Origin: an uncultured delta proteobacterium
GTDB taxonomy: Bacteria; Myxococcota_A; Polyangia; Polyangiales; B10-G4
Assembly: GCA_963727445.1 (NCBI GenBank)
Contig: CAVSGI010000020.1
Coordinates: 32,001 to 96,000 of the forward strand
Direction: 5' to 3'
Length of the DNA stretch: 64,000 nucleotides
Shown here: one piece after another, positions 28,161-46,205 of the stretch
How positions within the stretch are numbered: the first letter of the stretch is position 1
How the letters are laid out: each line of letters opens with the position of its first letter
The notes under the pieces: model-generated
The model's input: only the letters and a program-made list of their open reading frames with translations
Databases searched by the model: none
Told to the model about the DNA's origin: nothing
Position numbers and translations under genes: made by a program

Positions 28161-28307
28161 CCTCGGACCCACGTGGCGAGCATACCAGGGAGATCCGTCG
28201 CGGCGCGGAATTCGAAGGACTGGCGTAGCGCTGACGCGAGCGCATCGCGTAGATCGCGGCGATCGGGGTAACCGTTCAGGCCCCCTGTTGGACGGCGGAC
28301 GGCGATC

Positions 28308-28666
28308 GGGGACGGTCCGAACTCCCGTCACGCGGCGCTCCGAGCCAGATCCTCCGAGGCGCTTGGGGACGGTCCGAACTCCCGTCACGCGGCGCTCCGA
28401 GCCAGATCCTCCGAGAGTCGCCTCGCCACGACCGAGTCCTCTTTGTGGAGCTCTACGTCGCACGCCATCCACGTCACCGATCCACCGAGATGCGGGCGCG
28501 CGTAGCACAGCCGCTCATCGAGCCGGCAGCGCAATGGTTGCGGCTGATCCGAACCGGCGTTCGGGTTTCGCGAATCTGTGAAACGGAGTCGAGCTTGACG
28601 CGAGAGGCATGCGTTACTCGGACCGTCAGACGCGCCCAGACGCCCCCGTTACGGAAGTTCGGACCG
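28308..28666. mobile_element. Non-coding MITE/REP-like element, copy A (left end duplicated)
   Basis: GGGGACGGTCCGAACTCCCGTCACG at 28308 and 28365. Inverted end CGTTACGGAAGTTCGGACCG at 28647-28666. Interior highly similar to 32940-33125. Confidence 0.75.
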
Positions 28667-28726
28667 GCCATGTACGAGGACGCCGCCTCCGTGAACATCG
28701 CCCTCTGGCCGCCGGCCGAGTAGCGC

Positions 28727-29656
28727 GTGCCGGCTGCCCCGCGTATTCGCCCGCGCCAAACGGGTGCATCGCCACGCCAATGGCTTGCGGCGCGAGTCAC
28801 CTTGGAGAACAGTCCTTCCGTTACCGACACGGAAGCCGAGCTCGCGCGCTCTCGGGGCCGCGTCCGCGCGTTCGCGCTGGAGCGCGCGTCCGCCGACACC
28901 GACGACCAGCTGCGATTGCGGCAGGCCATCGGCGCCGACGATACCGCGCAGATTCACGCGCTGCTGCAGTCCCGGCCAGCGCTGGCGCACTACGAAGACG
29001 CGGTCGCCCTCGCCGCCGCGAGTCATCCGGGTGTGCTCCGCGCGCTCCTCGACGCCGGCCTGCCCGCGAACGCGCGCGGGCCTTTCGGCAAGCCCGCCGT
29101 GGCCGTCGCGGCGGAGGCCTCGACCGATGCCGCGCTCACGTGCCTGGAGCTGCTCCTCGAGGCCGGCGCGTCGCCCGTGGCCGAGAGCGCGGAGGGTCTG
29201 TCGCCGCTCCACTACGCGGCGACGCGCGGCCGACCGGAGGCGGTCGAGTTGCTCATCGACGCCGGCTCCCCGGTCGATGCGCGCGGCGTCATCGGACTGA
29301 CGCCGCTCCACCTCGCCGCAGCGCACCTCCACGCCGGCAACGCCCGGACGCTCCTCGCGCGCGGGGCCGAGCCGAACGCCCGCGACCATGCGGGTTCCAC
29401 CCCGCTCCACCAGCTCGCCGCCGCCGACGTCGGCCTGCGGACCGTCGACGAGCAGCTGGCACCCACGCTGGAGGCGCTCGTCGAGGGGGGCGCCGACCTG
29501 ACGCTCCGCGCGCCCGAGCCAGCCGCGACAGCCGAGCCGGTCGGAAAGATGAAACCTCCGCGCACGCCGCTCGAGCTCGCCCGGATGCGACGAAACCGCG
29601 CGGCGCGGCGGACCGCCGAGCTGCTCGAGGCCGTGGGCCGCGCTCAGAACCGGTAG
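28727..29656 (+). CDS. Ankyrin-repeat protein
   Basis: GLSPLHYAA, GLTPLHLAA, GSTPLHQLA, LLxxGAD/N motifs. Start uncertain. Confidence 0.85.
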   Translation: MPAAPRIRPRQTGASPRQWLAARVTLENSPSVTDTEAELARSRGRVRAFALERASADTDDQLRLRQAIGADDTAQIHALLQSRPALAHYEDAVALAAASHPGVLRALLDAGLPANARGPFGKPAVAVAAEASTDAALTCLELLLEAGASPVAESAEGLSPLHYAATRGRPEAVELLIDAGSPVDARGVIGLTPLHLAAAHLHAGNARTLLARGAEPNARDHAGSTPLHQLAAADVGLRTVDEQLAPTLEALVEGGADLTLRAPEPAATAEPVGKMKPPRTPLELARMRRNRAARRTAELLEAVGRAQNR

Positions 29657-29929
29657 TTTCCGTAGGCCCCGAACACGGCGGATAGGCCACGAACTTGGCT
29701 GTCGTTCGGACGAGATCTGCATCGAGGGCTTCCTGCTCGACTACTTCGAGCCCGCCGACTCGCCGGACTTCTGCATGTACCTGACGTCGCTGGAGGCCGG
29801 CGAAGCCTGCGACGATCCGGAAACCTGGTGCGGTCCCGATCGCGACGCTCTGGGGGGTGTGCGTCCTATGACGGCGCCCGCAGGGAACCCCACCCCCCAC
29901 GAGCTCCTAGCCGTGCCGCCGCCTCCGGA

Positions 29930-30821
29930 TCACGCCCGATGTAGGACAACCGCTTCCCCGGACGCCGCTCCCTCGTGGCAAGGTACGATCTGTCGACCCA
30001 TCACCCGGTTCGAAGAGAGCGGAGGCCGTTTGTGGTGGCCGTGGCGTCGCAGGTGTCCCAGCAGAATCCGAAGTCGAGGGCTAGGGTGAGGGGGGTGGGG
30101 ACGCCGGCACGGCCGGCGGACTCCACGCATACCTGTCCTTCGGGACACGCACTCGACGTTCCCGCCGCGGCGCTCGGACGGCAAGGTCTCCGGCACCCGC
30201 GACTGCCACACAGTAGCCCCTCAGCACACCAGGTATCGTCTTCGCACGACTCGTACGCCCCGGCCTCTCCGAAGGGAGTGCAGTAGCCCACGAAGACTCG
30301 GGTCTCTTCGCTGTCGTAGTAGTGGTCTCGTGGAGCACACTAGCTTTCGGCGTCACACTCGTCGTTCCACGGAGGCATTGAAGGAACCCGAGGCAGCCTC
30401 CAGTGCCGGGGTAGGCCCCGATCGGCGCGCAGAGCACCCCCTCCTCACACTCGTCGTCTGGGGCCGAAGTGCCATCCGGTGTGCATAGCTGAACGCACAC
30501 CGACTCTCCCTCGAGTCCGATGCACACCGAGCCCTCGCGGCAGCGCTCCTCCGGGGGCAGCGACTCGTCCGACTGACACGGGGTCTCGGGCGCGAGCGTG
30601 CCGCCGACTACACAAGTCCCGGTGAGCGTCGGATTCCGAAGGTCCGGCTGGCACCACTCCCCGTCCTCACACGCATCGATCGAACTCGGATCACACGTCT
30701 CCGGAGGGGTCCCGCTGTCGACGGTGGCCCCGGTGTCGGGCTCGCTGCCGCTGTCGACCTCGCCGGTCCCATCACCCGAGCAGCCCCCCACCGTGAACAT
30801 CGCCACGATTGCCGCGACCAT
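29930..30821 (-). pseudogene. Cys-rich lipoprotein, fragmented across frames
   Basis: Lipobox VGGC in ORF 30081..30872. The Cys-rich reading continues in ORF 30001..30291 after frame breaks. Confidence 0.55.
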
Positions 30822-31197
30822 CGCTCTTCCCCGTATGAAGGGGGAAGGTACTCGTGGCGCAGATGGGGGCAAGGTCTGCGCCGATCAGTTGGTCCGAGAG
30901 CGGGAAGAAGTAGTCGGGTGCATTCCGAATCCAGCCCTCCGATGGGCTGCGGGGCCTACTCGAAGGCCTCGACGCAAGGGCGAACGAGCAAGTCGGCGCT
31001 CCCCTCGACTTCATACGGACCGTCGCTGAGCTCGATCTCGCACCCCGATCGACCCCGCGAGCCACAGCCGGCCTCACCGACGACCGGGTCCGCGCCCTCG
31101 CCGCCGACTTGCATTGGTGACGCTCACGGCAGCTTTCCAAGCGGAGAGCGCATGCCGGCGGTTTCCGCGCGGAGAGCGCATGCGCTAGTATCGCGCC

Positions 31198-31659
31198 GTG
31201 TTTCGCGTCGGCGACCGCGTCCACTACCCGGCTCAAGGCCTCGGCACCATCGAACGCGAGATGGAGCATGAGGGCGTCCCGGTGCTCTTCGTTCGGTTGG
31301 ATGTCGGGAGTGGGATCGGCGTACCGATTGCGAGCGCCGCGGAGCTCCTGTGGCCGCTGCCCTCGAAGGAGCGCGCACTCGCCCTCGAAGCGCAGATGCT
31401 CACGCCGGCGGAGCCTGACAACGGCTCCTGGCCGGAGCGCTACGCGACCTTCGAGCGCGCGCTCCTCGAAGGGACGCTCGACGACTACGTCGAGGTGCTT
31501 TGCCGAAATCTCGCCCGCGCCGCGCCCGCGTCCTTCGGAGAGCGAAAGATGATGATGGTCCTCGAGGACAACGCCGTCGCACCGGTGGCGGAGAGTCTCG
31601 GCAAGGACCGCGCTGCGTTGATGGCCGAGGCCGCGGCGCGCCAAGCCGCCGGGCGATGA
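31198..31659 (+). CDS. CarD/CdnL-family transcription factor paralog
   Basis: FRVGDRVHYPAQGLGTI, SWPERY, SFGERKMM. Confidence 0.85.
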   Translation: MFRVGDRVHYPAQGLGTIEREMEHEGVPVLFVRLDVGSGIGVPIASAAELLWPLPSKERALALEAQMLTPAEPDNGSWPERYATFERALLEGTLDDYVEVLCRNLARAAPASFGERKMMMVLEDNAVAPVAESLGKDRAALMAEAAARQAAGR

Positions 31660-31924
31660 GCGGAGCTCAAATCCCGAACGCGATGCCCACCGATCCGATG
31701 ATCGCCATCCGAAGCTCTTCGCCGCCCATGACGCGGTATGTGATCTCGAAGGGCAACCGCCTGTCGGGACGCCGCTATTTCGCAGTGTAGGCCGACCGAT
31801 TCTCAGGACGCCCTGCGCTTCGCTGGGTCCCGTCGGAGGCTCCGCTCACCCGCGTGGTGATAGGACGAGGCACAGCATTCCTCGCAGTCTCATCACGTCC
31901 CCTTTCTCGTTTGTGTGTCGACCC

Positions 31925-32533
31925 TCAGGTGGTACAGCCAAACGCGACCGTGCCCTCGACGCGGAGCGGGACCCCGTCGACGTCGAAGACGAGCACGTAG
32001 TCCACCATGCGGCCCGCGGCGCAGACGTCGCAGATGGAGGCGGGCGGCGTGCCGGGGACGTTCTCGAGCATTTGGCGGACCACATCGCCGGCGCCGAGGG
32101 TGAACACGGCCGGGTCGAGGGCGATGACGGTCGTCATCATTGCGGCGTCGTCGAAGGTCAAGGTGGCGGACGTAAGTGTCGCGGTGACCTCGGTCGCAGC
32201 TGCGGAGTTGTCGAATTCGAGGAAGAGGTCGATCTGCAGCGGGTCGGTCGGGACGGGAGCGGCGCATTCACCGAAGGCCGTCGCGCCGAACTCCGTGATC
32301 ACGAGGCTCGTCGTGCCGGCGTCCGCGCTGGCGTCGGCGGCGGCGTCGTCCGAGCCATCCGGCGCTGCGCCATCCGGCGCTGCGCCATCTGGCACCGCGC
32401 TGTCGGCGACGGTGGTGTCGGGGCCGCTGTCGCCCGCGCCCGTGTCCATGCTCGCGTCGGTCGCTCCGTCATCGCCGCAGGCGACGAGAAGGACGACGAG
32501 GACGAGGGCCAGGACTGCCAATCGTTGGACCAT
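31925..32533 (-). CDS. Hypothetical lipoprotein
   Basis: Lipobox LVAC, D/S/A/P-rich linker, beta-rich C-terminal domain. Confidence 0.7.
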   Translation of the reverse strand: MVQRLAVLALVLVVLLVACGDDGATDASMDTGAGDSGPDTTVADSAVPDGAAPDGAAPDGSDDAAADASADAGTTSLVITEFGATAFGECAAPVPTDPLQIDLFLEFDNSAAATEVTATLTSATLTFDDAAMMTTVIALDPAVFTLGAGDVVRQMLENVPGTPPASICDVCAAGRMVDYVLVFDVDGVPLRVEGTVAFGCTT

Positions 32534-32567
32534 CGGTCGATCTTCGCACGTTTGGCCCAATGCGGGG

Positions 32568-32940
32568 GCGATCGGGGGGGCGATCGGGGACGGTTCGAAC
32601 TTCCGTCACGCGGGGCGATCGGGGACGGTTCGAACTTCCGTCACGCGGCGCTCCGAGCCGGCGATCGGGGACGGTTCCGGGGCGATCGGGGACGGTTCGA
32701 ACTTCCGTCACGCGGCGCTCCGGGGGGGCGATCGGGGACGGTTCGAACTTCCGTCACGCGGCGCGATCGGGGACGGTTCGAACTTCCGTCACGCGGCGCT
32801 CCGAGCGGGCGATCGGGGACGGTTCGAACTTCCGTCACGCGGCGCTCGGGACGATCGGGGACGGTTCGAACTTCCGTCACGCGGCGCTCCGAGCCGGCGA
32901 TCGGGGACGGTTCGAACTTCCGTCACGCGGCGCTCCGAGC
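32568..32940. repeat. Tandem stutter array of the element left end (8 full + 2 partial copies)
   Basis: Core CGATCGGGGACGGTTCGAACTTCCGTCACGCGG starts at 32581, 32616, 32683, 32729, 32764, 32810, 32852 and 32898. Partial copies at ~32568 and 32662. Confidence 0.95.
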
Positions 32941-33174
32941 CAGATCCTCTACGAGTTGCCTCGCCACGACCGAGTCCTCGTGTGGAGCTCTACGTCGCAC
33001 GCCATCCACGTCACCGATCCGCCGAGATGCGGGCGCGCATAGCACAGCCCCTCATCGAGCCGGCAACGCATTGGTTGCGGCTGATCCGAACCGGCATTCG
33101 GGATTCGTGAATCTGTGGAACGGAGTCAAACGCGCCCACCAGACGCGCGCGTTACGGAAGTTCGGACCGTCCCC
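32903..33174. mobile_element. Non-coding MITE/REP-like element, copy B, with 25-bp terminal inverted repeats
   Basis: Left GGGGACGGTTCGAACTTCCGTCACG (32903-32927) matches the reverse complement of right CGTTACGGAAGTTCGGACCGTCCCC (33150-33174) at 23/25. Confidence 0.8.
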
Positions 33175-33491
33175 AGAAGTTGCGCTGTACGCTGCAGCGC
33201 CTCGAGCGTCAGCTGCCGCATCAGCGTGACCATGGCTTCGTTGAAGCGCGCGTGGAAGCTGGAGGGCGCCAGGCGCACCCCAGTGGCTCGAAGGTAGGCT
33301 CGTCGAAGCCCTGTCAGGCTCCGCCGGTCGCCAGCGGAGAAGCCGAGCACCAACCCGTACACCAGCGACACGATATCAACCTTGCGCCGGCGTCGAACGA
33401 CTCCCAGCCGGCGAGACAGCTCCCGGATCCGACGACGCGGCAACACGCTGGTCAGCGCTCGATGAATGTGGCTAGGCTTGCGGCGAGCCAT
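33175..33491 (-). pseudogene. N-terminal fragment of an IS4-family transposase
   Basis: IRELSRRLGVVRRRRK...LVLGF...SLTGLRRAY...LAPSSFHARFN resembles IS4 N-termini. AAGGAGG RBS upstream. No DDE domain; the reading runs into the repeat end at 33174. Confidence 0.7.
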
Positions 33492-33662
33492 CGCTTCCCT
33501 CCTTTGGACTTAGACACCCGTAGGAGATCAGAAGCGGTGGCTCTTTTCGATCACGCAGCGCGCGCAGGGCTCAACCAATTGGAATCGCTTAACCTTCTCG
33601 ACAGTCGCAGCCGCTTATCCGAACACGAATGATCATACCTACTGCGAAACTCGGGCGTCCGG

Positions 33663-33697
33663 TGAAGGGGTTGGCTTCCGTGGAGGCTGGAAACCGG
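33663..33697 (+). repeat. 35-bp motif, copy 2, upstream of the toxin gene
   Basis: Matches 26364-26399 with one substitution and one indel. Overlaps the hairpin GGAAACC-GGGC-GGTTTCC (33689-33706). Confidence 0.8.
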
Positions 33698-33757
33698 GCG
33701 GTTTCCGCTGCACCGGGGTGCTGTCGTCGCATCCAGACCAAGACTATCCTCCGTCGG

Positions 33758-36700
33758 ATGCGAACGAGGCGAACGCTCGTCGTGCTCACCGCGCTGGGCT
33801 TGGTGCTCTTCGGCCCGGCGACTGGATGCAACTGTGGCTCGGATGGGCCGATGGACGCCGCCGGTGAGGGCGGTGTCGGGGACCCGGAGATCTGCGACAA
33901 CGGGATCGACGACGATCTCGACGGCGACGTCGACTGTGAGGACGTCGACTGTGCGGCGGTCCTCGTGGCGGGGAGCGACGAGACGTTGGACGCTCCGTTT
34001 CGCGATCGCGTGCGCTTCCTCTACGAGGGAGGCATGTGCGCGCCGCTCCAGGTGGACGTCACGCCAGGCGCACTCGACGACGATCCGCTTTCCGTCCTGA
34101 CGGGCGTCGTCACCGGCGACGATGGGGAGCCGCTTCCCGGCGTCGAGGTGAGCGTTCTCGGACACCCCGAGTGGGGGCGCGTGCGCTCGCGTGGGGACGG
34201 ACGCTTCGAGATCGCGGTGCTCGGCGGGACCTCGCGGACGCTTCGCCTCACGGCGCCGGATTACCTCGAGAGTCAGCGGAGCGCGGTGGCGCGCCCCGAG
34301 GACTACACCGAGGTCGAAGCCGTCGAGCTCGTCCTCGAGGGGCCGAGCACGACCATCTCCCCGATGGCGGGCGGCGTGGTCCGGAGCGCGCGCGAGAGCG
34401 ACGACAGCGGCGAGCGCGGTGCCACCGCGATCTTCCGGGCCGGGACGAGCGCGTCGATCCGCATGCCGGATGGAAGCACGTCGCCCGCGGGCACGCTGAC
34501 GCTCCGCCCGCGCGAGGTCACCGTCGGTCCGCGCGGCCCGAGCCGGATGAGCGCGACCCTTCCTGCGGCGAGCGCCTACACCTATGCGATCGACTTCGAC
34601 GCCGCCGAGGCGCCGGAGGGCGCGGATGTCGAGTTCGACCAGCCCGTGGCGGTCTACGTCGAGGACTTCCTCGACATGCCGGTGGGCACGCCCGTTCCCG
34701 TGGGAAGCTACGACCGCGCCCTCGGCCACTGGAATGCGGAGGACGACGGCCGCGTGGTCGAGATCGTCTCGATCACCGGGGGCGTCGCCGATCTCGACGT
34801 CGACGGGGACGGCGTGGCGGAGGCCGACAGCGACCTGACGGCGCTCGGCATCGACGTCGAGGAGCGCCGCACCCTCGCCGCGGAGCACGCCGCCGGCGCG
34901 ACGCTCTGGCGCTTCGAAGCGACGCACTTCTCGCTCTGGGACGCGAACTGGCCCTTCGGCTTCCCCGACGACGCGATCGACGTGCTGCTCTCGCTGCTCG
35001 GACTCGACGCGTTCTTCGAGGACACCTGCTCGAACGGCTCCCAGATCCACGTCGAGCGTCAGGTGTTGGGCGAGTCGGTTCCGCTCGTGGGGACGGGCTT
35101 CTCGCTCCACTACACGAGCGATCGCCACATCGGCTACCAGGCGTCGCGCGCGGTTCGCGCGGTGATCACGCCGGACACCATCCCGCCCTCGCTCCGCGAG
35201 GTGCGCGTCGAGCTGGCCCTCGCCGGTCAGACGATTCGCGAGTCGTTCGAGCCGGCGCCGTCGCTGGTCTACGCGCACACCTGGGACGGTCTCGATCGCT
35301 TCGGGCGCCGGTATCGCGGCGCCACGCCCTACGTGCTCCGCGTCGGCTACGTCTACGACGGCGTCTACGCCGCGCCGGGCGAGTCGCGCGACGCGCCTTC
35401 GTTCGGGAGCGGTGGGGATCGCCGGCTCGAAGGAAGCCGCACGCGCGAGGAGGTCGTCGTCTGGCGCGAAGCGCGCGGCTCCGGGTCGCTCGAAGATGCG
35501 CGCACTCAGGGGCTGCTCGGCCTGACCCTCAGCCCGCATCACCGGCTCGAGCGCGTGAGTGAGACGCTTCTCCGCGGCGATGGGCTGACGGTGAGCGGCC
35601 GCGCGATCCCGCGCATGGTGCGGCGGATCGGCGGCGCCGGCGGGACGGCGGCCGCCGATGGCGTCCCCGTCGCGTCCGCGTCTTTCGGCTCGGTCTTCGG
35701 CCTCGCCCGGTCGCCCGATGGGCGCATCTACGTGGGTGACGCCGGCGACAACCGCATCTACCGCATCGAAGACGACGGCACGCTGACGCACGTCGCGGGC
35801 GACGGCACGTATGCGTCGACCGGGGACGGCGGACCGGCGCTCAGCGCGTCGCTCCAGAGCCCCCACCACCTCCTCTTCGGACCCGACGGCAGCCTCTACT
35901 TCACCGAGCCCTACTCGCTCCTCGGAACCGGCAGCGGCGAGACCGGCGGTCGCATCCGCCGCATCGCCCCGGACGGAACGATTCACGGGGTCGCGGGAAC
36001 GGGCGAGTTTCAGCGCTCTTCCGCGCGTGACGGCGTCGACGATGGGCTCCCCGCCGAGCTGGCGAAGCTCGAGGACGTCGGGCCGATCGCGTTCGCTGCC
36101 GACGGCACGCTCTACATGGTGGACGGATCGTCGACGATCCGCTTCGTGACGCCGTCGGGGATCCTCCAGACCGCCAACCGCATGCCGGAGTTCGGCGATC
36201 CCGACGGCACGCCCCTGACCGAGGCGTTCATCGGTGCGATGAGCGCGCTCGTCATCGACGGCGAGGACAACCTCTACCTCGGGACGACCGGCGGCAACGT
36301 GTACCGCGTCGGTCCCGATCGCATCGTGCGCTACGTCGCCGGCGGCGGGAGCGAGCTGGTCATTCCGGGAGGCGTGCCGGCGCGCGACGCCAACATCGGG
36401 CGGGTCGACTCGCTCCTCGCCCACGAGGACGGCCTCTACATGGGCGCGCGCGAGGGACGGCTCCTGCTCCTCGATCACGCGGGGATCGTCAGCCGCGTTG
36501 CCGGCGACGTCGCAGACTTCCCCGCGGGCAACGGCGGCCCGGCGATCGAAGCGACCTTCTTCAAGCTCCTCGCGCTCCTCCCCACCGACGGCGGCATCCT
36601 GGTCACGGACGAGAGCCCGTCGAATCAGCTTCGCGAGATCCGCCGGAGCTTCGGCGCGAGGCGCGCCGGCGAGTGGGTGGTTCCGTCGGGCGACGGCGCG

Positions 36701-39700
36701 CTCCGCTACATCTTCGATTCGACCGGGCATCACGTGCGCACCGAGACCGCCTCGACCGGGGCGCTGGTCCTGGCATTCGATTACGACGCCGAGAACCGCC
36801 TGACGACCATCTCGGACCCCGACGGAAACACGCTCGGTATCGAGCGCACGTCGGGCGCGGTCACGCTCGTCCCGACGGAGGGGCCGTCGACCACGCTCTG
36901 GGACGACGACGGGGACGGGTTCGCCGACCGCATCTCGACCGATGGTGATCCCTACGAGGTCACGCTTTCGCTCGCGGCGGACGGGCTGCTCGAAGGCTTC
37001 GTCGATCGCCTCGGTGTCGCCCACGCGTTCGGCTACGACCCGACGGGCAAGCTCGTGAGCGACGGCGTCGAAGGACGGAACGCGCAGGAGCTCTCGGCCG
37101 ATGGCAGCCAAGTGACCTTGACGACGGGCGCGGGGCGGACGGCGACGTGGGAGACGCGCTCGTTCGGGGCGACGCGGGACCAGACGTACACGGACGAAAG
37201 CGGGATGACCGTCCACCGCACCGTCGATTTCGACGGGACCGTCGTCACCAGCTATCCCGATGGCGCCTCGCTCACGCAGGTGATGCGCCCGGACGTCGTG
37301 CTCGGCGGCGGCGTGATGGTGCCCGCCGAGACGACGCTCGCGACCCCTGGGGGACGCTCGGTCTCGTGGACCATCGACCAGTCGGCGACCGTCACCGACG
37401 AGCGGCTCGAGAGCCGGCAGACGGAGATCACGGTGGCGCCGGGAACATCCCGGCGCGCGACGCTCAGCGAGGAGCTGGTCGTCGCGCCGACCGGCGAGAG
37501 CACGTTCACGGTGACCAGCGCCGAAGGGCGAACCGGGACGATGGAGCGAAACGCCCGCGGCGAGCTGGTGCGGGTGGAGCGGCCGGGTCGGCACCCGGTG
37601 CAGCTCTCCTACGACACGAGCGGGCGGCTCCTCGCGGTCGTTCAGGGCGACGGAACGGTGAGCCGGCGCCTCGACTTCACGCTTCCAGCGCTGCCGAGCG
37701 CCACGTTCGGCGACGTGGGCGTCACCGATTCGCTCGGGCAGAGCGTCACGACTTCGTGGGATGCGCGCGGCCGCGCGATCGAGAGCGCCGACGCGCTCGG
37801 GAGCGTGCTCACGGGATACGACGAGGGCGCGCGCGAGCTCTCGATCACGCCGCCGGGGCGAAACGCGCACACGTTCGGTGCGAACGCCTTCGGTCAGCTC
37901 GCCAGCTATGCGCCGCCAGCGATCGCCGGCGGCGGCGGCGGCCGGAGCTACGAGTTCGACGAGGACGACGCCCCGGTCGCGATGACCGCCGGCGGGACGC
38001 GCGTGGCCTTCGAGGTGGATGACAGCTTCCGGCCGCGCTCGGCGATGCTCGAAGCGGGACGCGGCGGGGAGGTCGACTGGAACGGCGCCGGCGATCCGGC
38101 GGTCTGGCGCTGGCTCCAGCCGCTCGGGACGGTGAGCGTCACGCCGACCTACGACGGTCCGGTGGTGACGAGCGTCGACGTCGCGGGGCCCTACAGCGCA
38201 ACGCTCACGCCCGTCTACGACGACGCCCTCGAGACGACCGGGCTCAGCATCTCGGTCGGCACGCAGATCAGCGCGCTCTCGTTCACGACGGATCTCGATG
38301 GCCTCCTCGAGTCGATCACCGCGGCGCACGGACGCACGCACACCATCACGCTGACGCGCGACCCGGTGAGCGGGGATCTGACGCGCGCACGCGCCGACAG
38401 CACCAGCTCGACGTATGTGTTCGACGGCTTCGGGGCGGTGTCTTCCGCAGCGCACACGTGGACCGGTGGCAGCCTCTCGCGGACCTACACGCCGGACGCC
38501 GTCGGCCGCATCGGGCGCGTGACCGAGGCCGGCTCGTCCGACGACTTCCAATACGACGCGCGCGGAAGGCTCACCCGCGTCTTCCGCGAAGGGTCGCTGC
38601 GCTATTCATACGACTACGACGCCAACGGCAACCGCATGTCGTGGCAGTCGCCGGGGAACACCTGTGACGATCCCGGCGGCACGGGGCGCTGCGTCGACAT
38701 CGACGCGCAGGATCGGCTCTTGCGGTACGGCGCCGCGGGCGCGGGCGCGATCAGCTTCACGTATGACGACGCCGGACAGCGCCGGACGCGAAGCGATGCC
38801 GCGGGCATGACGCAGTATACGTACGACGCCGTCGGCCATCTGGTCTCGGTCACGATGCCGACGGGGAGGCGCATCGAATACGTGACCGGACCCGACGGCG
38901 GACGCGTCGCGCGGCTCGTCGACGGCGTGCGCACCGATGCGTTCCTCTACGGTTCCGGCGGACGCATCCTCGGCCGCGTCGACGGAAGCGGAAATCTGGT
39001 GATCACGTACGTGTATGCCGACACCGACTGGGTGCCGAGTTACGCGCTCCATCGCGACGGACGGCTCTTCCGGGTGGTGACCGACCAGGTGGGCTCGGTT
39101 CGCGCGGTCGTGAATGCCGAGACGGGCGCGGTCGCGCAGCGCTACACGTATTCACCATTCGGTGTGATCGAGAGCGACGTGACGGCCGAGGACATCGTCC
39201 CTCATCGCTTCGCGGGCGGCCTCTACGACCCGGAGACGCACCTGCTGCGTTTCGGCGCGCGCGACTACGACCCGGAGATCGGCCGCTTCACGGCGAAGGA
39301 CCCGATCGGCTTCGGCGGAGGCGACACGAATCTCTACGCCTACGTCGGAAGCGACCCGATCAACGCCGTCGATCCGAGCGGGCTCTTCATCGACACCCTC
39401 GTCGACGCGCTCTCCATCGCCGGCTGCGCCTTCGCGATCCTCCGCGACAACGTCTTCGGCACCTGCGACAACCTGAACGCGAACCTCACCCGCTGCGCCA
39501 TCGCCGCGGCCGCGTTCATCATCCCCTTCGTCGCCTACGGCGCGCTCAAGGCCATGGGGCGGTTTGGCCGCCGCGCGGCACGCTACGCGGACGACATCCC
39601 CTGCGGGAGCGGCGTCTGCCCGTGCTTCGTCGCCGGCACCCTGGTCGCGACCGGCCTCGCCGGCACCTGCGACGCCGACGTCGCCCTCGCGCACGACAAG

Positions 39701-40564
39701 ATCGAGACGCTCGAGGTCGGCGACCGCGTCGTGACCGCGGCGATGCTCGACGAAGACGCGCCCGCGTACGAAACGCGCGTCCGCCCCGACTGGCAGGTCA
39801 TCGATCTCGAGGTCGCGGGCACGGCCGACGACGGAAAGCGCAAAGTCGTCGCCCTCACCGTCCTCCGGCCCCCCGGCTGGCTCGACGCCGAGGACCCGGA
39901 TGGCGACGGCGCCTTCCCCCTGGACCTCCCCGAGCTCCGCCTCCGCGGCCTCGCCCACGTCATCCAGGTCCGCGGCCCGCCCACGCTCGCCGCGGGACCC
40001 GGCCGCGTCGTCCTCTCCACCGTCGTCCACGAAGACGCCGACGTCGTCTCGCTACGCCTCACGCGCGAGGACGACGCCTTCGCCGCGCCGATCGAGATCC
40101 GCGCGACTGCGAACCACCCCTTCTACTCCCTCGCACGCCGAGACTGGGTCTCCGCTGGCGACCTCGCGCTCGGCGAGCCGGTCCAAACCGCGCACGGCGC
40201 GTATGCGCTCAGCGCCCGCGAACCGCTCCCCGGAACGCACCGCGTCTACAACCTCGAAGTCGAGCGCGACCACGAGTACCTCGTCTCGAACGTCGGCGCG
40301 CGGGTGCACAATGCGTATCCGAACGCAAACACGCTCAATCACATCTTCGGACAGGCGCGACACAACCTCGACCAAGTGGTTCAACATTTCGGATCAGAAC
40401 AAGCCGCTTTCGACGCACTTCAGTCCGGCGCTCAGGCTGCAGCTGACGCCGGGCGAATCTCGGACGTTTTCGAAACAGTCATCACAGTTGCCGGTCAGGA
40501 TGTGACGGTTCGCGGCCGGGTTATCGACGGCATGGTACGCATCGGCACGGCCTTCATCCCGTGA
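33758..40564 (+). CDS. Teneurin-like RHS/YD polymorphic toxin lipoprotein with pre-toxin Hint domain
   Basis: Lipobox ATGC; EICDNGIDDDLDGDVDC; TTR/FN-plug-like region; NHL repeats (VAGDG, VAGTG); YD repeats; RHS core FGARDYDPEIGRF..DPIG...DPSG; Hint CFVAGT...VYNLEV...VHN (39623-40312); 83-aa tip. Confidence 0.92.
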   Translation: MRTRRTLVVLTALGLVLFGPATGCNCGSDGPMDAAGEGGVGDPEICDNGIDDDLDGDVDCEDVDCAAVLVAGSDETLDAPFRDRVRFLYEGGMCAPLQVDVTPGALDDDPLSVLTGVVTGDDGEPLPGVEVSVLGHPEWGRVRSRGDGRFEIAVLGGTSRTLRLTAPDYLESQRSAVARPEDYTEVEAVELVLEGPSTTISPMAGGVVRSARESDDSGERGATAIFRAGTSASIRMPDGSTSPAGTLTLRPREVTVGPRGPSRMSATLPAASAYTYAIDFDAAEAPEGADVEFDQPVAVYVEDFLDMPVGTPVPVGSYDRALGHWNAEDDGRVVEIVSITGGVADLDVDGDGVAEADSDLTALGIDVEERRTLAAEHAAGATLWRFEATHFSLWDANWPFGFPDDAIDVLLSLLGLDAFFEDTCSNGSQIHVERQVLGESVPLVGTGFSLHYTSDRHIGYQASRAVRAVITPDTIPPSLREVRVELALAGQTIRESFEPAPSLVYAHTWDGLDRFGRRYRGATPYVLRVGYVYDGVYAAPGESRDAPSFGSGGDRRLEGSRTREEVVVWREARGSGSLEDARTQGLLGLTLSPHHRLERVSETLLRGDGLTVSGRAIPRMVRRIGGAGGTAAADGVPVASASFGSVFGLARSPDGRIYVGDAGDNRIYRIEDDGTLTHVAGDGTYASTGDGGPALSASLQSPHHLLFGPDGSLYFTEPYSLLGTGSGETGGRIRRIAPDGTIHGVAGTGEFQRSSARDGVDDGLPAELAKLEDVGPIAFAADGTLYMVDGSSTIRFVTPSGILQTANRMPEFGDPDGTPLTEAFIGAMSALVIDGEDNLYLGTTGGNVYRVGPDRIVRYVAGGGSELVIPGGVPARDANIGRVDSLLAHEDGLYMGAREGRLLLLDHAGIVSRVAGDVADFPAGNGGPAIEATFFKLLALLPTDGGILVTDESPSNQLREIRRSFGARRAGEWVVPSGDGALRYIFDSTGHHVRTETASTGALVLAFDYDAENRLTTISDPDGNTLGIERTSGAVTLVPTEGPSTTLWDDDGDGFADRISTDGDPYEVTLSLAADGLLEGFVDRLGVAHAFGYDPTGKLVSDGVEGRNAQELSADGSQVTLTTGAGRTATWETRSFGATRDQTYTDESGMTVHRTVDFDGTVVTSYPDGASLTQVMRPDVVLGGGVMVPAETTLATPGGRSVSWTIDQSATVTDERLESRQTEITVAPGTSRRATLSEELVVAPTGESTFTVTSAEGRTGTMERNARGELVRVERPGRHPVQLSYDTSGRLLAVVQGDGTVSRRLDFTLPALPSATFGDVGVTDSLGQSVTTSWDARGRAIESADALGSVLTGYDEGARELSITPPGRNAHTFGANAFGQLASYAPPAIAGGGGGRSYEFDEDDAPVAMTAGGTRVAFEVDDSFRPRSAMLEAGRGGEVDWNGAGDPAVWRWLQPLGTVSVTPTYDGPVVTSVDVAGPYSATLTPVYDDALETTGLSISVGTQISALSFTTDLDGLLESITAAHGRTHTITLTRDPVSGDLTRARADSTSSTYVFDGFGAVSSAAHTWTGGSLSRTYTPDAVGRIGRVTEAGSSDDFQYDARGRLTRVFREGSLRYSYDYDANGNRMSWQSPGNTCDDPGGTGRCVDIDAQDRLLRYGAAGAGAISFTYDDAGQRRTRSDAAGMTQYTYDAVGHLVSVTMPTGRRIEYVTGPDGGRVARLVDGVRTDAFLYGSGGRILGRVDGSGNLVITYVYADTDWVPSYALHRDGRLFRVVTDQVGSVRAVVNAETGAVAQRYTYSPFGVIESDVTAEDIVPHRFAGGLYDPETHLLRFGARDYDPEIGRFTAKDPIGFGGGDTNLYAYVGSDPINAVDPSGLFIDTLVDALSIAGCAFAILRDNVFGTCDNLNANLTRCAIAAAAFIIPFVAYGALKAMGRFGRRAARYADDIPCGSGVCPCFVAGTLVATGLAGTCDADVALAHDKIETLEVGDRVVTAAMLDEDAPAYETRVRPDWQVIDLEVAGTADDGKRKVVALTVLRPPGWLDAEDPDGDGAFPLDLPELRLRGLAHVIQVRGPPTLAAGPGRVVLSTVVHEDADVVSLRLTREDDAFAAPIEIRATANHPFYSLARRDWVSAGDLALGEPVQTAHGAYALSAREPLPGTHRVYNLEVERDHEYLVSNVGARVHNAYPNANTLNHIFGQARHNLDQVVQHFGSEQAAFDALQSGAQAAADAGRISDVFETVITVAGQDVTVRGRVIDGMVRIGTAFIP

Positions 40565-40572
40565 GGTAGTCT

Positions 40573-40965
40573 GTGGAACAGATCAGCCCGCTCGAGCGCT
40601 CCGTTCTCAGTCTCCTGCTCGAAGGAGATCATCCGGCGCTTCCCGCGCTTCGCAAGCAGGTCGCGTCTTGTCAGGTGACCAAGCGCGCGTTTACTGGAGC
40701 GGGGTTCGTGACGGAACTTCACGTGCCGTCAGAAGTCCCGTCCGTCCCTCTGCGAGATGAGTCCATCCGTTTCGGTGACGTCATCGCCGAGGTCATCGGC
40801 TTGGAGGCTGGAGCTGGTTTCGTCCTCTATGTCGACAAAGGTCGTATCACCGCACTCGAAGGCTATACGTTCGGTGAGCCATGGCCGGCGGAAGTCGAAG
40901 TGAACTCGTTTGACTACTCGACGATGCCTCGTGATTTCTCACCGCTCGACGTCGAGAGCTCTTGA
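40573..40965 (+). CDS. Putative cognate immunity protein 1
   Basis: Small ORF 8 bp after the toxin stop with GAGG RBS. Motifs FTGAGF and GFVLYVDKGRITALEGYT..EPWP. Confidence 0.75.
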   Translation: MEQISPLERSVLSLLLEGDHPALPALRKQVASCQVTKRAFTGAGFVTELHVPSEVPSVPLRDESIRFGDVIAEVIGLEAGAGFVLYVDKGRITALEGYTFGEPWPAEVEVNSFDYSTMPRDFSPLDVESS

Positions 40966-41054
40966 GCCGACCGCGAGGCGCGGGTGTTCGCGTGAGTCGG
41001 GGTGATGTTTTAGCGCCAACTACGAGTACCTGCGACGAATGGGGACTGCGACGA

Positions 41055-42192
41055 ATGGGGACGGATCTCGAAAACTCGGTTTCGGCGCCCGCTAGGTTCC
41101 AACCGATGACCTCGACACGAATCGAGCGTCACGAGGTGCCACGCGCACTGCGCGCCTTCGTCGCCGGCACCCTGGTCGCGACGGGCCTCGCCGGCACCTG
41201 CGGCGCCGGCGTCGCGTTGGCGCACGACAAGATCGAGACGCTCGAGGTCGGCGATCGCGTGGTGACCGCGGCGATGCTCGACGAAGACGCGCCCGCGTAC
41301 GAAACGCGCGTCCGGCCCGACTGGCAGGTCATCGATCTCGAGGTCGCGGGCACGGCCCACGACGGAAAGCGCCAGGTCGTCGCCCTCGCCGTCCTCCGAC
41401 CGCCCGATTGGCTCGACGCCGAGGACCCGGACGGCGACGGCGCCTTCCCCTTGGACCTCCCCGAGCTCCGCCTCCGCGGCCTCGCCCACGTCATCCAGGT
41501 CCGCGGCCCACCCACGCTCGCCGCGGGACCCGGCCGCGTCGTCCTCTCCACCGTCGTCCACGAAGACGCCGACGTCGTCTCGCTACGCCTCACGCGCGAG
41601 GACGACGCCTTCGCCGCGCCGATCGAGAATCCGCGCGACGGCGAACCACCCCTTCTACTCCCTCGCGCGCCGCGACTGGGTCTCCGCTGGCGACCTCGCG
41701 CTCGGCGAGCCGGTCCAAACCGCGCACGGCGCGTATGCGCTCAGCGCCCGCGAACCGCTCCCCGGAACGCACCGCGTCTACAACCTCGAAGTCGAGCGCG
41801 ACCACGCGTACCTCGTCTCGAACGTCGGCGCGCGGGTGCACAATGCGTATCCGGGACCTCCGTTTAGCGGTACAGCGCACCAAGCACGTTGGGCGACGGC
41901 CCGACAAGGTTTGGAAGGGCCAGGTCTTCGTGATCACTTCGCCAAGCATGGGGCCGAAGTAGGTGCCGACTCTGCTCGAGCCTACGATCGTAGCGCACGA
42001 CAGACTATTCAAAACGGTAGACGGTTCAGATATCGGGATAGGGCGAGTGGCGAGTGGCGAGTTGGCTATTGGGACGCCGAAACCGGCCTATTCACCGCCA
42101 CGAGTCAGACCAGAGGCCGACCTGCAATCCTGACGCACTTTCCAGAGACATGGGAAAACCTGCGCCGCCTGCCCGGTTTCTCAGCGAGCTGA
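41055..42192 (+). pseudogene. Orphan cassette 1: leader + Hint (no N-terminal Cys, +1 frameshift at ~41628) + alternative toxin tip (41845-42192)
   Basis: Near-identical copy of 39626-40321. GATCGAGAATCC versus GATCGAGATCC in the main gene. After VHNAYP the sequence is unrelated and contains DHFAKHG. Confidence 0.85.
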
Positions 42193-42194
42193 AG

Positions 42195-42665
42195 ATGTCA
42201 ACGCGCAAGCTCATCGAAGAGACGCGCCTTGGACTGGCAACCGAGATCAAACTTCCACATCAGGCTGCCGCCCTCGGCATGAACCTGTACCGTCTGATCT
42301 ATGAGCTCGGGTGCGAGGATGACGCGGTGGTGGCTTCGCTCATATCCGCGTTCAAAACGCGATTGCGCGACATGGGATTCGAGAACCTCGTCTCTCACCA
42401 AATGCGTTATGCGATCCGGCTCGCAGACTCCGACGGGCAGCTCCGCTACGAAGAGCTACACAAGCTCCTCTCCCTTTGTGACGAGACATTCGGGCTGAGG
42501 AAGCTGGGGCTTGCCGAAGAACCGGACGTTCGCGATGTGTTCGAGTCGGCGGTTCGGCGTCGCTTGCGTGTTCAACGAGCCGACGCCGTACTGGTCGCCG
42601 AGGACAGGATCACGAATAGCAACCGCCGCAGGTGGTGGTACCAGGAGCTCGTCGGAGCCAGCTGA
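42195..42665 (+). CDS. Putative immunity protein 2
   Basis: ATG 2 bp after the orphan tip stop. 156-aa helical-looking protein unrelated to immunity 1. Confidence 0.7.
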   Translation: MSTRKLIEETRLGLATEIKLPHQAAALGMNLYRLIYELGCEDDAVVASLISAFKTRLRDMGFENLVSHQMRYAIRLADSDGQLRYEELHKLLSLCDETFGLRKLGLAEEPDVRDVFESAVRRRLRVQRADAVLVAEDRITNSNRRRWWYQELVGAS

Positions 42666-42683
42666 GACGTAGGGGGACGACGA

Positions 42684-43158
42684 ATGGGGACGGATCTCGG
42701 AAACTCGGTTTCGGCGCCCGCTAGGTTCCAACCGATGACCTCGACACGAATCAAGCGACACGAGGTGCCACAAGCGCTGCGCGCCATCGTCGCCGGCACC
42801 CTGGTCGCGACGGGCTTCGCCGGCACCTGCGACGCGGGCGTCGCCCTCGCGCACGACGAGATCGAGGCGCTCGAGGTCGGCAATCGTGCGGTGACAGCGG
42901 CGATGCTCGACGAAGACGCGCCGGTGTACGAGACGCGCGTCCGACCCGATTGGCAGGTCGTCGATCTCGAGGTCGCGGGCACGGGCGAAGACGGAAAGCG
43001 CAAGGTCGTCGCGCTCACCGTCCTCCGGCCGCCCGGCTGGCTCCACGCCGAGGACCCGGACGGCGACGGCGCCTTCCCCCTGGACCTCCCCGAGCTCCGC
43101 CTCCGCGGCCTCGCCCACGTCATCCAGGTCCGCGGCCCGCCCACGCTCGCCGCGGGAC
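42684..43158 (+). pseudogene. Orphan cassette 2: leader + truncated Hint
   Basis: Same leader as 41055 and Hint sequence up to PPTLAAG, then it breaks into the GGGGACGG end. Confidence 0.85.
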
Positions 43159-43166
43159 GGGAAGAA

Positions 43167-43191
43167 GGGGACGGTCCGAATTTCCGTAACG
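43167..43191. repeat. Solitary 25-bp element end
   Basis: GGGGACGGTCCGAATTTCCGTAACG is the reverse complement of 33150-33174 at 24/25. Confidence 0.9.
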
Positions 43192-43239
43192 CCATGCCCC
43201 AGGAGTCGCCAAGAAGCCCCACCGCCGCAAACCCTCAGC

Positions 43240-44007
43240 TCAGGTCTCGGGTGCCGTCCAGATCAGCGTACGGCCGTCGTCGGGCTTGGGTCGATGCACG
43301 CAGTTGCGCCGATCCTCGGAACGACACGTCTCGTTGTCACGAAACCACGCGGGAAGTCCGAACGGCAGATCGGCCGCCGGGATCGGCGCGTAGTCCCCAT
43401 CTCGGAACTCCTCGAGGCTGTAGTTCCACGCGCGCGGCACGCCGTCGGGATCGGGCGTCACCTCCTTGCGGAGCGAGGTGACCGCCGAACGCCATTGCGA
43501 ACGGAGCCGCGCGTGGTCGTGACTCGCGGGATGCAGGATCTTCACATAACGCTGTTGGTCGCGACCCGGCCACAGATCGAGCGCCTGATGGGCGATGCGA
43601 CCGAACGCGACGACCGCCTCGACCTTCGATCCGCGCGCGAGATCGTAGAGCGCGTTGCGCCACGCCATGTGTTCCGGGTCGTTCAGCATCGACCAGGACG
43701 CACCCTGTTGGCTCGGAAAGAGCCCGTAGACGAAGGCGTTCAAACACAGATAGCTACGTGTCAGCCCGAGCTTCTTCAGAAAGGCCTGCACCCGCTGCCC
43801 CGAATCGCCGACCAGGCACCGACCCGCGATCCGCTCCGTCGGCCCCGGATCGGACGCGATGACCAGCACCCGCGCCGACCCGTCGAGCCGCCCCCGATAA
43901 AACACGGGCCCCCAGCTGTACCAGAACCGCTCCGCGTACTTCCCGTAGTCCGGCACCTGCGCGAAGAGCTGCTCGAACGCTGGCGGCGGTCCTGGGTCGT
44001 GGGCCAT
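43240..44007 (-). CDS. Uracil-DNA glycosylase superfamily protein
   Basis: ARVLVIASDPGPTE....LVGDSG, YLCLNA, VVAFG..A, ILHP. Confidence 0.75.
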   Translation of the reverse strand: MAHDPGPPPAFEQLFAQVPDYGKYAERFWYSWGPVFYRGRLDGSARVLVIASDPGPTERIAGRCLVGDSGQRVQAFLKKLGLTRSYLCLNAFVYGLFPSQQGASWSMLNDPEHMAWRNALYDLARGSKVEAVVAFGRIAHQALDLWPGRDQQRYVKILHPASHDHARLRSQWRSAVTSLRKEVTPDPDGVPRAWNYSLEEFRDGDYAPIPAADLPFGLPAWFRDNETCRSEDRRNCVHRPKPDDGRTLIWTAPET

Positions 44008-44360
44008 CGAATCCCCTACACGACGCGGACCTTACCGCATGAAGGGTGCAGCCGTCAGCGCCTTCATGGCCCCGCCCAGTCCCCGATGAACACGTTTCCC
44101 GCCGCGTCCCGGTACGTGAAGAGCAGGAACAGGTTGATCGACCCGTCGGCAGACGCGTCGTAGCAGTCGGATGTGCAGGCATCGGCGTCGACGCGGTTGC
44201 CGTCGTCGCCGATGCTCGTACAGTCGTCGGGCGAGGACGCCGCCCTCGAGGAAGCGCCGGAGCTCGGCCTCGACGAAAGCCGGGACACCGACGCCGCTAG
44301 TGCCTGGTCCACAACCAGCGAGCCGATACAGGCGCGCGCAGAATCGAATCGAGTCGCAGC

Positions 44361-45983
44361 TCAGGGTGCAACGGGGCCGAGCGGCGTGCCGGGCGGGGCC
44401 CAGGCGACGAGGACGTCGGCGTCCGTCGTGAGCCCGAGGACGCGGAGCGACTGCGGCGACAAATCGATGAGGCGACCGGTGCGGGTGTTGGGACCCCAGT
44501 CCACCGGCCGCACGACGATGGTGGCGCCGGTGTTCGGGTTGCGGACCACCAGCTTGGCGCTCCGGAGCCAGGAGACGCCCTGGGGCGCGTAGTTCCAGCG
44601 CATGGCGCAGAAGTAGTAGTCGTCCGGATGGCTCGCGGCTTCGGACGGGGAGGGGTTCATCGGCGAGTTGAGGCTGCGCAGGCGCTCGCCGGTGACGGCG
44701 CCGGTCTCGGTGCTGCTCACGCCCGTGTCGTCGGGACCGCCGAACCAGCTGATGCTGCCGCGCACCCAAGACACGCCGCCGTCGCCGACGACGGTGCCCT
44801 CTGGCTCGGTGGACACACCGAGGGCGCGCTCCAGCGTCGGATTCGCGAGCCCCGCGCGCGGGATGGACATCCCGTCGAGGTCGAGGCCTGCGTAGGGGAA
44901 CGAGGTCGAGGGCGTCGGCGGCGCTTCTGCCGGCATTGGCAGGGGCTCGGAGCCGGCGTCCGAGCCGCGGGGGCCGCAGTCGCTACAGTCGGTGCCGAGG
45001 GCGCACACCGAGTAGAGCGCGCCGGAGCCTCCGTCGTCGCACTCGCCGTCGCCGGCCCAGCGACAGGTGTCTTCGCAGCCGGCCGTGGTGTCACCGGTCG
45101 TGTCGGGCGCAGGTGCAGGCGCCGGGTCGCTGCCGGTACCGCGGCTGCCGCAGTCCATGCAGTCGGTGCCGTACTCGCAGAGCGACCAGTCCGAGTCGGG
45201 CCCACCGTCGTCGCACTCGCCGTCGCCGAAGTAGGGGCAGGTGTTGGTGCAGCCGGCGGTGTCGGTGCTGGTGTCGGTCCCGATGCCAGGGTCGGTCCCG
45301 CTGCTCGTCCCGGTGTCGGTCCCGGCGCTATCGGCGGGCGAGTCCACCGGCGCCGACGAGCCAGAGTCGGCGAACCACGGCGTCGCCATCGCCGCACCGT
45401 CGGTGCTCAGCTCGATGTGGATGTGGTCGTGGTGGGGGTGAGGGCCGCCGTACGCGCAATCCTTGCGGCCGCTGTAGCTGATGTTCCACTTGGTGCGATC
45501 CCAGATGAAGAACTGCACCCCGATCTCGGTCGCGTGATCGATGAGCCAGTTGGCGACGGGATCGCCGAGGTCGTTGTCGGCGTCTCCACCGCTCAGGGGG
45601 ATGAAGAGGTCAATCGCGCGCCCCGTGCCGTGCATCGAGAGCTCGGAGCGATTGGCGGTGTTCGGACGGCAGGCGTAGCCGTCGAAGCGCGTCGCCGCGA
45701 AGTTCGCGACCAGGTAGTTGCCGAGGGTGCTCGCGCCCTCCGAGAAGGTGCCGCTGCAGCTCGCGCCGCCGTTGTAGGGGCCAGCGCCCTCGTAGGTTCC
45801 GCTCTGCGCTTCGCCCGAGGCCCGCGCTTCGTCCGACGGGATGTAGCGCCCGTCGCGGGACAGCGGCGCCGCGTCCGCGTGCTTGTAGGGATCGTCGCCC
45901 TCCACCTCGTGGTCGGCTGGGAGCGCTGCGCAGCCACCGAGGAGCACGATGGATGTCGCGAGAGCGAAGAGGGGTCGAAGCAT
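44361..45983 (-). CDS. Lipoprotein with M15/Hedgehog-type Zn peptidase domain, two Cys-rich repeats and a C-terminal RlpA-like double-psi beta-barrel
   Basis: Lipobox LGGC; SMHGTGRAIDL and HHDHIHIEL; 2x C..TC...GDGECDDGG....S.C..GTDC.DCG.R; VVRPVDWGP...RLIDLS. Confidence 0.75.
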   Translation of the reverse strand: MLRPLFALATSIVLLGGCAALPADHEVEGDDPYKHADAAPLSRDGRYIPSDEARASGEAQSGTYEGAGPYNGGASCSGTFSEGASTLGNYLVANFAATRFDGYACRPNTANRSELSMHGTGRAIDLFIPLSGGDADNDLGDPVANWLIDHATEIGVQFFIWDRTKWNISYSGRKDCAYGGPHPHHDHIHIELSTDGAAMATPWFADSGSSAPVDSPADSAGTDTGTSSGTDPGIGTDTSTDTAGCTNTCPYFGDGECDDGGPDSDWSLCEYGTDCMDCGSRGTGSDPAPAPAPDTTGDTTAGCEDTCRWAGDGECDDGGSGALYSVCALGTDCSDCGPRGSDAGSEPLPMPAEAPPTPSTSFPYAGLDLDGMSIPRAGLANPTLERALGVSTEPEGTVVGDGGVSWVRGSISWFGGPDDTGVSSTETGAVTGERLRSLNSPMNPSPSEAASHPDDYYFCAMRWNYAPQGVSWLRSAKLVVRNPNTGATIVVRPVDWGPNTRTGRLIDLSPQSLRVLGLTTDADVLVAWAPPGTPLGPVAP

Positions 45984-46205
45984 CGAGGGACCTTTCCGGG
46001 GGGGTCTGTCGTTCCCGGCGGGAGTGCCGTGCCTCGTCCCATCGCAAAGCAGATGCCATTTGGGGGCGGCGCCCCTCGATCGCACAACCGCTGGCGATCC
46101 GAGACGCCACCTGTCACCTCGATGTTCGGGGGCCGGGGACCACGTGCCCCGAACGGAGCATTAAGTGTGGTCCGTCAGCGCGTGGTCACGCGCCCCCGGT
46201 GAGCG

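Follow-up and report, generated by a model that had tools for sequence, protein, structure and literature searches.

Inverted repeats beside a polymorphic toxin locus of an uncultured delta proteobacterium probably belong to the TIRtron/TIRYT kind

We analyzed a stretch of 64,000 nucleotides (positions 32,001 to 96,000 of contig CAVSGI010000020.1, assembly GCA_963727445.1) of an uncultured delta proteobacterium, hereafter the window. The window genome, G000, is a 9.47-Mb assembly of 27 contigs that is 85.6% complete. Two genomes were used for comparison: G001 belongs to the same genus, and G002 belongs to another family of the same order. The window carries a polymorphic toxin gene with orphan cassettes, and this toxin locus is flanked by two inverted copies of a 25-nt repeat. 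The original prediction, made on this DNA from its letters, regarded the two copies as the ends of a unit in which toxin DNA is captured, deleted or reshuffled. The repeats probably belong to a known, little-studied kind, that of the TIRtrons and TIRYTs, and the remaining interest lies in the genes truncated next to the repeat tips. The features are listed below; coordinates without a contig name are window positions, and plus and minus arms are repeat copies on the respective strand.

25059-44360, no strand: accessory island (about 19.3 kb) that the syntenic site of G001 lacks; it includes all the parts listed below
28308-28671, plus strand: repeat cluster A, with plus arms at 28308-28332 and 28365-28389 and a degenerate minus arm at 28647-28671 (tip ATGGCC)
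32586-32927, plus strand: tandem array of eight plus arms (GGGGACGGTTCGAACTTCCGTCACG) with a period of 35-67 nt and GCGATC before each arm
32903-33174, plus strand: 272-bp inverted-repeat element, made up of the last plus arm of the array, a 218-nt spacer and a minus arm
33150-33174, minus strand: left copy of the 25-mer, the right arm of the 272-bp element, GGGG tip at 33174
33183-33631, minus strand: IS4-type (DDE_Tnp_1) insertion sequence (IS) remnant, with the first 103 of about 434 codons (33183-33491) and the upstream IS end to 33631
33629-40564, plus strand: polymorphic toxin gene, teneurin-like TTR/NHL/YD-shell, RHS repeats, PT-HINT
40573-40965, plus strand: 130-amino-acid open reading frame (ORF) directly 3' of the toxin gene, putative immunity gene by position
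41071-41867, plus strand: orphan cassette 1, with PT-HINT homology at 41156-41853
42785-43158, plus strand: orphan PT-HINT cassette 2, which loses its homology to the other two copies past GCGGGAC (43158)
43154-43166, plus strand: stuttered tip GGGACGG with the 6-nt spacer GAAGAA; its first 5 nt overlap the native GGGAC of the Hint sequence
43167-43191, plus strand: right copy of the 25-mer, a solo arm, GGGG tip at 43167
43240-44007, minus strand: UDG-superfamily gene, stop codon 48 nt from the solo arm

The left 25-mer (CGTTACGGAAGTTCGGACCGTCCCC) and the right 25-mer (GGGGACGGTCCGAATTTCCGTAACG) lie where the original prediction had placed them and are reverse complements at 24 of 25 positions, with one mismatch. 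Extended to 26 nt, the arms are 96% complementary, and they are 9,992 nt apart. Beyond this pair, the window contains 10 more copies. Twelve copies at up to three mismatches, compared with 0.00 expected from 100 shuffles, rule out chance for the 25-mers, which are a true repeat family. At up to four mismatches, the genome has 30 copies on contigs C11, C12, C20 and C21 and one more at C24:18575. These approximately 31 copies fall into nine loci. It turned out that the loci are tightly clustered: five pairs lie within 15 kb, compared with 0.11 expected, and none of 20,000 random placements reached five. The family is therefore not so abundant that the bracketing would be a matter of chance. None of the nine loci is more than 76 kb from a contig start. 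Contigs C9, C11, C12, C21 and C24 carry at least eight near-full copies (91-100% identity) of a 1.32-kb (approximate length) element of the IS110 family, and several of these copies are near contig ends and within tens of kb of window-type repeat loci.

The repeat takes the form of extragenic single arms, doublets, the 272-bp inverted-repeat element and tandem arrays. Doublets are found at C11:34585-34719, C11:36902-36973, C21:11666-11749 and C21:14991-15083. Two of them, folded as single-stranded DNA, gave z values of -5.4 and -4.5, and the 272-bp element folds at -69.4 kcal/mol (z -3.85). The genome has three full copies of this element: the one beside the toxin locus, a diverged copy within cluster A (28365-28671; 92% identity over 226 nt to 32903-33127), and C12:53669-53940, which is 95.6% identical to the first over 272 nt. 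All complete elements have GGGG as their outer tip. Many arms are preceded by a stutter, a partial copy of the tip with a spacer of 5-6 nt. The arrangement seen before the right copy has its like before the arms at C11:36889 and at C12:53457, 53508 and 53656. Other forms of the stutter are GGGGACG-AAGAA on C11, GGGGACGG-GGGAAC on C12, and G-runs with GCGATC before plus arms. The right copy is a solo arm: its partner minus arm was not found, and no outward-facing partner follows past 43191. It shares 13 nt on its left and about 13 nt on its right with the doublet C11:36902-36973, the right-hand stretch resembling the loop of that doublet. As the stop codon of the UDG-family gene is 48 nt away, the solo arm is extragenic and lies at a gene 3' end. 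In the whole window, no Rfam family reached its gathering score. At C21:15900-16320, a segment of about 120-207 bp that ends in a minus arm has two further duplicates nearby, so that arms have spread there together with their inner flank. In one metagenome contig of low depth (run X1), 32931 is followed directly by 33149, with 217 nt skipped. This may be a short-spacer form of the 272-bp element; the shorter side of the join has 27 letters and may stem from another copy or organism.

Because GGGG is outermost in all complete elements and the tips at 33174 and 43167 face each other, the toxin locus lies outside both elements. Doublets run plus arm first and then minus arm, so DNA between any two consecutive loci has a minus arm on its left and a plus arm on its right. 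The same flanking is seen for the DNA between the doublets on C11 and on C21. A composite transposon or other mobile unit bounded by the 25-mers was rejected: the tips point inward, to the enclosed DNA, and the piece that is missing in G001 is 25059-44360. Thus, contrary to the original prediction, the pair does not bracket a unit. An empty-site allele does exist in G001, but the missing DNA is about 19.3 kb long, not the 10 kb between the arms. On contig C2 of G001, the homologues of the FKBP gene (24297-25058) and of the gene for a 574-amino-acid protein (44361-46085) are convergent and 17 bp apart. The FKBP homologue has 75% amino acid identity, and collinear matches go on to both sides. 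The tblastx comparison of the G001 locus with the window contained GC-rich noise and was restricted to matches with an identity of 50% or more over 50 amino acids or more. No match to the 17-nt core of the repeat was found on C2. A search of G001 with window positions 28700-32560 gave two matches of 46-56 nt, which agrees with island DNA. All three repeat loci of the window are inside the island. Its order is a methyltransferase gene, cluster A, an ankyrin-repeat gene, a lipoprotein gene, cluster B, the IS4 remnant, the toxin locus, the solo arm and the UDG-family gene. Clusters A and B are in direct orientation with 4.3 kb between them, and they share 88.7% identity over 283 nt. The two island borders have just one word of 12 nt or more in common, a 14-nt inverted match (25218-25231 with 44182-44195); considered as an end repeat of the island, this GC-rich word was taken as chance. 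Three public metagenome runs contained 6-10% of the sampled words of the locus, in low-depth short contigs, none of which bridges 33174 or 43167. Beside the island, the gene for the 574-amino-acid protein contains an internal repeat (44944-45261, minus strand; 144 nt at a spacing of 174 nt, 72% identical) that encodes Cys-rich segments; the protein has no Pfam family.

We also examined the genes between the arms. The toxin protein has 2,311 amino acids and a PT-HINT match in Pfam (E 3.9e-06); its lipoprotein-type start is probably at 33758. The original prediction had named a toxin, an immunity gene, an IS4 remnant and orphan cassettes. The toxin (RHS/teneurin YD-shell), the remnant and the cassettes stand. 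The 130-amino-acid ORF has no Pfam family match, so its immunity label comes from its position only. In orphan cassette 1, a 1-nt insertion relative to the main toxin shifts the frame, and the match is split over two frames. The genome has one toxin locus of this type; the other, weak RHS-like match is on C25, a contig without a repeat copy.

Two genes at the locus end at the repeats, as had been noticed earlier. Residues 1-103 of the minus-strand frame that starts with the ATG at 33491 share 40% identity with the N-terminus of a 434-amino-acid transposase of a related genome, which matches Pfam DDE_Tnp_1 (E 4.4e-30). The IS4 homology can therefore be followed to about 33183, no more than 8 nt from the tip at 33174, and the left copy does sit where the transposase breaks off. 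Positions 33351-33631 are 99.3% identical to C12:31128-31408. Alignment of the three PT-HINT cassettes showed that they are common as far as GCGGGAC (43158), and the third diverges 8 nt before the right repeat. This confirms the break of the second orphan Hint on a native GGGAC. A third cut gene is an IS110 fragment at C11:34731, which corresponds to about 900-1323 of the 1.32-kb element and starts 11 nt from a doublet tip. Consequently, three of the nine loci (IS4, PT-HINT, IS110) adjoin a gene fragment cut no more than 11 nt from a tip, and the repeats may be endpoints of rearrangements, with no link specific to toxins. It had also been stated that the window encodes no candidate recombinase. 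The Pfam scan, which covered 62 frames of the window, including 37 of 84 composition-filtered frames, agrees with this: no recombinase family was found among them, and there is no TIRYT homologue on the window contig.

Which enzyme such repeats go with was seen in the relatives. The exact 25-mer pattern had no match in 185,579 species genomes. At up to three mismatches, 3 of 41 genomes matched, G000 included. G001 has 12 copies of the 17-nt core, and G002 has 18. On contig C10 of G002, three plus arms (GGGGACGGTTCGAAC and onward), a 338-amino-acid ORF and four minus arms form one unit, and GGGGACGGTTCGAAC is common to these arms and to the arms of the window. A RAYT or TnpA-REP gene flanked by the motif, for which a search had been proposed, is thus present: the closest variant of the repeat flanks a RAYT-like Y1 gene in G002. 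This ORF has 56 homologues at E <=1e-05, two of which are named 'REP element-mobilizing transposase RayT' in their source. Among 31 aligned members of the enzyme family, Pfam Y1_Tnp was found in 14 and Bac_DnaA_C in 16, and H60, H62 and Y118 (the HUH motif and the catalytic Tyr) are invariant in all 31. For the AlphaFold model of the G002 enzyme (pLDDT 87.8), the best match among solved folds was the E. coli RAYT-REP complex (4er8_A, E 8.6e-06, TM 0.73 on target). The ISDra2, IS608 and IS200 transposases came next, and the C-terminal part corresponds to DnaA domain IV (3pvp, 1j1v). A sequence search of PDB chains with the enzyme profile found DnaA domain IV chains (E 3.5e-05) and did not find RAYT, which the fold search alone recovered. 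The TIRtron of G002 is flanked by a perfect 170-bp direct duplication (1538-1707 and 3127-3296 of the G002:C10 locus L013). It is the 3' end of a neighbouring peptidase-like gene and is far longer than a usual target-site duplication.

There are two TIRYT genes in G000 (C9 and C10) and two in G001 (C514 and C30). Together with the gene on C10 of G002, all five genes examined are flanked by inverted GGGGACG-tipped repeats, and each of the five flanking repeats has its own inner sequence. The families that belong to the two enzyme genes of G000 have 177 and 68 copies, which are arranged genome-wide in clusters of plus followed by minus arms. Counting the window family (about 31 copies), G000 has three repeat families but two enzyme genes. 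Contigs C9 and C10 carry no copy of the window variant at up to four mismatches; the repeats of their genes are different ones with the GGGGACG tip. Since the assembly is 85.6% complete, the cognate gene of the window variant may be unassembled. The TIRYT gene of the 177-copy family (G000:C9:566562-567552) gives a profile match in two frames and may be frameshifted, though its repeats, almost all letter-identical, look recently active. A single arm of this family (GGGGACGGTCTACACTTTTCAAC) also stands in the window, outside the island: it is at 16697-16719 on the minus strand, between the convergent genes for an AI-2E transporter and an amidohydrolase.

The features described correspond to a published class. 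TIRtrons and TIRYTs are described as RAYT-like genes flanked by terminal inverted repeats (TIRs), and the TIR families as 'organized as REPs in dimers or clusters' (PMC3733652). The likeness is close: terminal inverted repeats starting with GGGG stand on both sides of a RAYT-like HUH/Tyr gene, and single, dimeric and clustered copies of the repeat are present at other places in the genome (PMC3733652). The motif GGGGWSAS is ascribed to 'some' or to 'the majority' of TIRs (PMC3733652, PMC6006769). According to Quentin et al. (2018; PMC6006769), 20 of 26 TIRYTs are placed in subclass 2.1 of TnpA_REP, with Bac_DnaA_C or helix-turn-helix (HTH) C-termini, the HTH types being HTH_23/28; the enzymes found here share the C-terminal Bac_DnaA_C/HTH domain of this subclass. 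Several enzyme genes per genome, each with its own repeat, are a further common trait. The main text of PMC3733652 does not contain the words Myxoc-, Sorangium or Haliangium; the published TIRs are listed in its figures and supplements. The window variant differs in having no cognate gene in the assembly, in its 272-bp long-spacer form and one-sided array of eight arms, and in the confinement of its copies to a few accessory regions, with three of them at truncated genes. The undescribed mechanism of toxin turnover in the original prediction is not borne out: the repeat kind is the one described for TIRtrons and TIRYTs, and the neighbours of the other loci of the family are not toxin genes but kinase, RCC1, esterase, DinB and IS110 genes.

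Classical REP/REPIN repeats consist of a self-complementary unit of 20-40 nt with a GTAG tag at one end. The REP/REPIN-RAYT systems of Pseudomonas and E. coli resemble the present one in their short extragenic repeats, in inverted doublets that fold into hairpins, in inverted arrays that flank a single-copy Y1 gene, and in the enzyme, whose best structural match is the E. coli RAYT. In contrast to them, the window variant has no GTAG tag, its single arm is not a significant hairpin, and its copy number (about 31) is much lower; the enzyme is about twice as long and has a DnaA-type domain. For the toxin locus, the comparison is with Rhs/CdiA-type arrays of orphan cassettes. The usual model for these is homologous recombination at a conserved block, for which repeats are not needed. 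The window has the same order, a PT-HINT toxin with an ORF in the immunity position followed by 5'-truncated cassettes that share a Hint-region block, but the last cassette has lost its 3' side as well, at a TIRYT-type repeat. Two features spoke against a CRISPR array, which was rejected: spacers much too short for one, and arms in both orientations.

Taken together, the 25-mers are probably arms of TIRYT-type (REPIN-like) repeats inside a 19.3-kb island and not a new toxin-shuffling element. TIRYTs are RAYT-like Y1/HUH tyrosine transposases with a C-terminal DNA-binding domain of the DnaA domain IV type, and the repeats of the window would go with them. The window family is the smallest of the three, cognate-less in this assembly and confined to a few accessory regions rich in IS elements. 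Its three window loci split the island into modules, and the toxin locus is the DNA between two consecutive repeat loci; no element carries it as cargo. Old rearrangements that end at repeat tips may account for the truncated IS4 and orphan PT-HINT sequences. Two routes to them were considered. By the first, a repeat element inserts into a gene, and recombination or deletion between clusters in direct orientation later removes one side. By the second, a deletion ends at the stuttered GGGAC tip, guided by microhomology or by an enzyme. Either route may have produced the truncations; the first was taken as the more likely.

Several observations weigh against this reading. No TIRYT gene flanked by the exact variant of the window was found in the 85.6%-complete assembly of G000, so the enzyme link comes from a genome of another family and from the shared tip GGGGACGG. 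This tip fits the published motif GGGGWSAS at 7 of 8 positions, with G where the motif has A (PMC3733652). The 338-amino-acid protein of G002, taken alone, has no Pfam family, and its match to NCBIfam REP_Tyr_transpos is weak (E 0.0094; score 15.8 bits, cut-off 80). Single arms of the window variant fold no better than shuffles (z -0.25 to +1.2); a G002 arm, by contrast, forms an 8-bp hairpin (z -4.1). The island may have been inserted here or deleted in G001, whose DNA is 70-79% identical. The other halves of the cut genes were not found on the far side of the clusters, and simple insertion of a repeat element into these genes is therefore ruled out. Finally, tip-adjacent cuts at three of nine loci look like more than passive presence of repeats, and the two-step model offers no detailed explanation of them.

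The main alternative is that the junctions were made by the enzyme. A TIRYT would cut single-stranded DNA at the repeat tip and at a look-alike GGGAC and rejoin the ends, so that adjacent DNA is deleted or captured. Its footprints would then be seen at both junctions of the toxin locus and at that of the IS110 fragment on C11, and the repeats would be joints for the reshuffling of island modules, including but not limited to toxin cassettes. This is a weaker version of the original prediction, without its specificity for toxins. The fragments within 11 nt of a tip are consistent with this, as are the Hint break on a native GGGAC that begins a stuttered tip, with similar tips on C11 and C12, and the position of the repeat loci at the borders between island modules. 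The enzyme class also shares the fold of a nuclease that cuts REP DNA. On the other hand, no cognate enzyme gene for the window variant was found in the genome, and the metagenome runs, with their 6-10% of locus words, gave no excision product or alternative junction. A microhomology of 5 nt is equally produced by illegitimate recombination without an enzyme. Decaying IS-rich regions are rich in gene fragments anyway, and with a single toxin locus of this type in the genome no enrichment is measurable. We consider enzyme-made junctions rather unlikely.

It is far less probable that the arms are the terminal inverted repeats of a conventional DDE-type IS or of a miniature inverted-repeat transposable element (MITE), for example a Tn3-like one with a GGGG tip, and that the toxin lies in a decayed composite transposon. 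The 272-bp element does resemble a MITE mobilised by a DDE transposase, being non-coding with terminal inverted repeats of 25-27 nt, and remnants of IS4 and IS110 are nearby. However, no target-site duplication is apparent in the flanks read for the 272-bp copies or the doublets, the tips on the toxin side point inward with no outward-facing partner beyond 43191, and tandem arrays of up to eight arms are a habit of REP and TIR clusters. In the relatives, the closest variant flanks a Y1 gene and not a DDE gene; in view of this link, a Tn3-type end was set aside. Least probable of all, to the point of being barely tenable, is an inversion switch in which a site-specific recombinase acts on the 25-mers and flips the 10-kb toxin segment, since beyond the inverted orientation and the 24/25 identity of the sites nothing fits: no recombinase is among the window frames scanned, each arm runs into its own element type (the 272-bp element or a doublet loop) with no chimeric arms, and the window has 10 further copies.

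The probable assignment of the 25-mers to TIRYT-type repeats removes a false lead. The toxin locus would be neither carried nor bounded by a new repeat-driven element, and the repeat class was named in 2013. Di Nocera et al. (2013) put forward binding and cleavage assays as future work (PMC3733652), and a genome with three repeat families and two enzyme genes is suited to such work on TIRYT binding and cleavage. For one of these families, which is found in accessory regions only, the assembly has no enzyme gene. It is doubtful that the TIRYT repeat tips are true points of breakage and joining in vivo. If they are, the stuttered tip would be the cleavage signature of the TIRYT class, and this class would drive the modular shuffling and truncation of accessory DNA, including polymorphic-toxin cassettes. 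The gene fragments at the repeat tips are a concrete, testable hint that these repeats may play a role in genome rearrangement.

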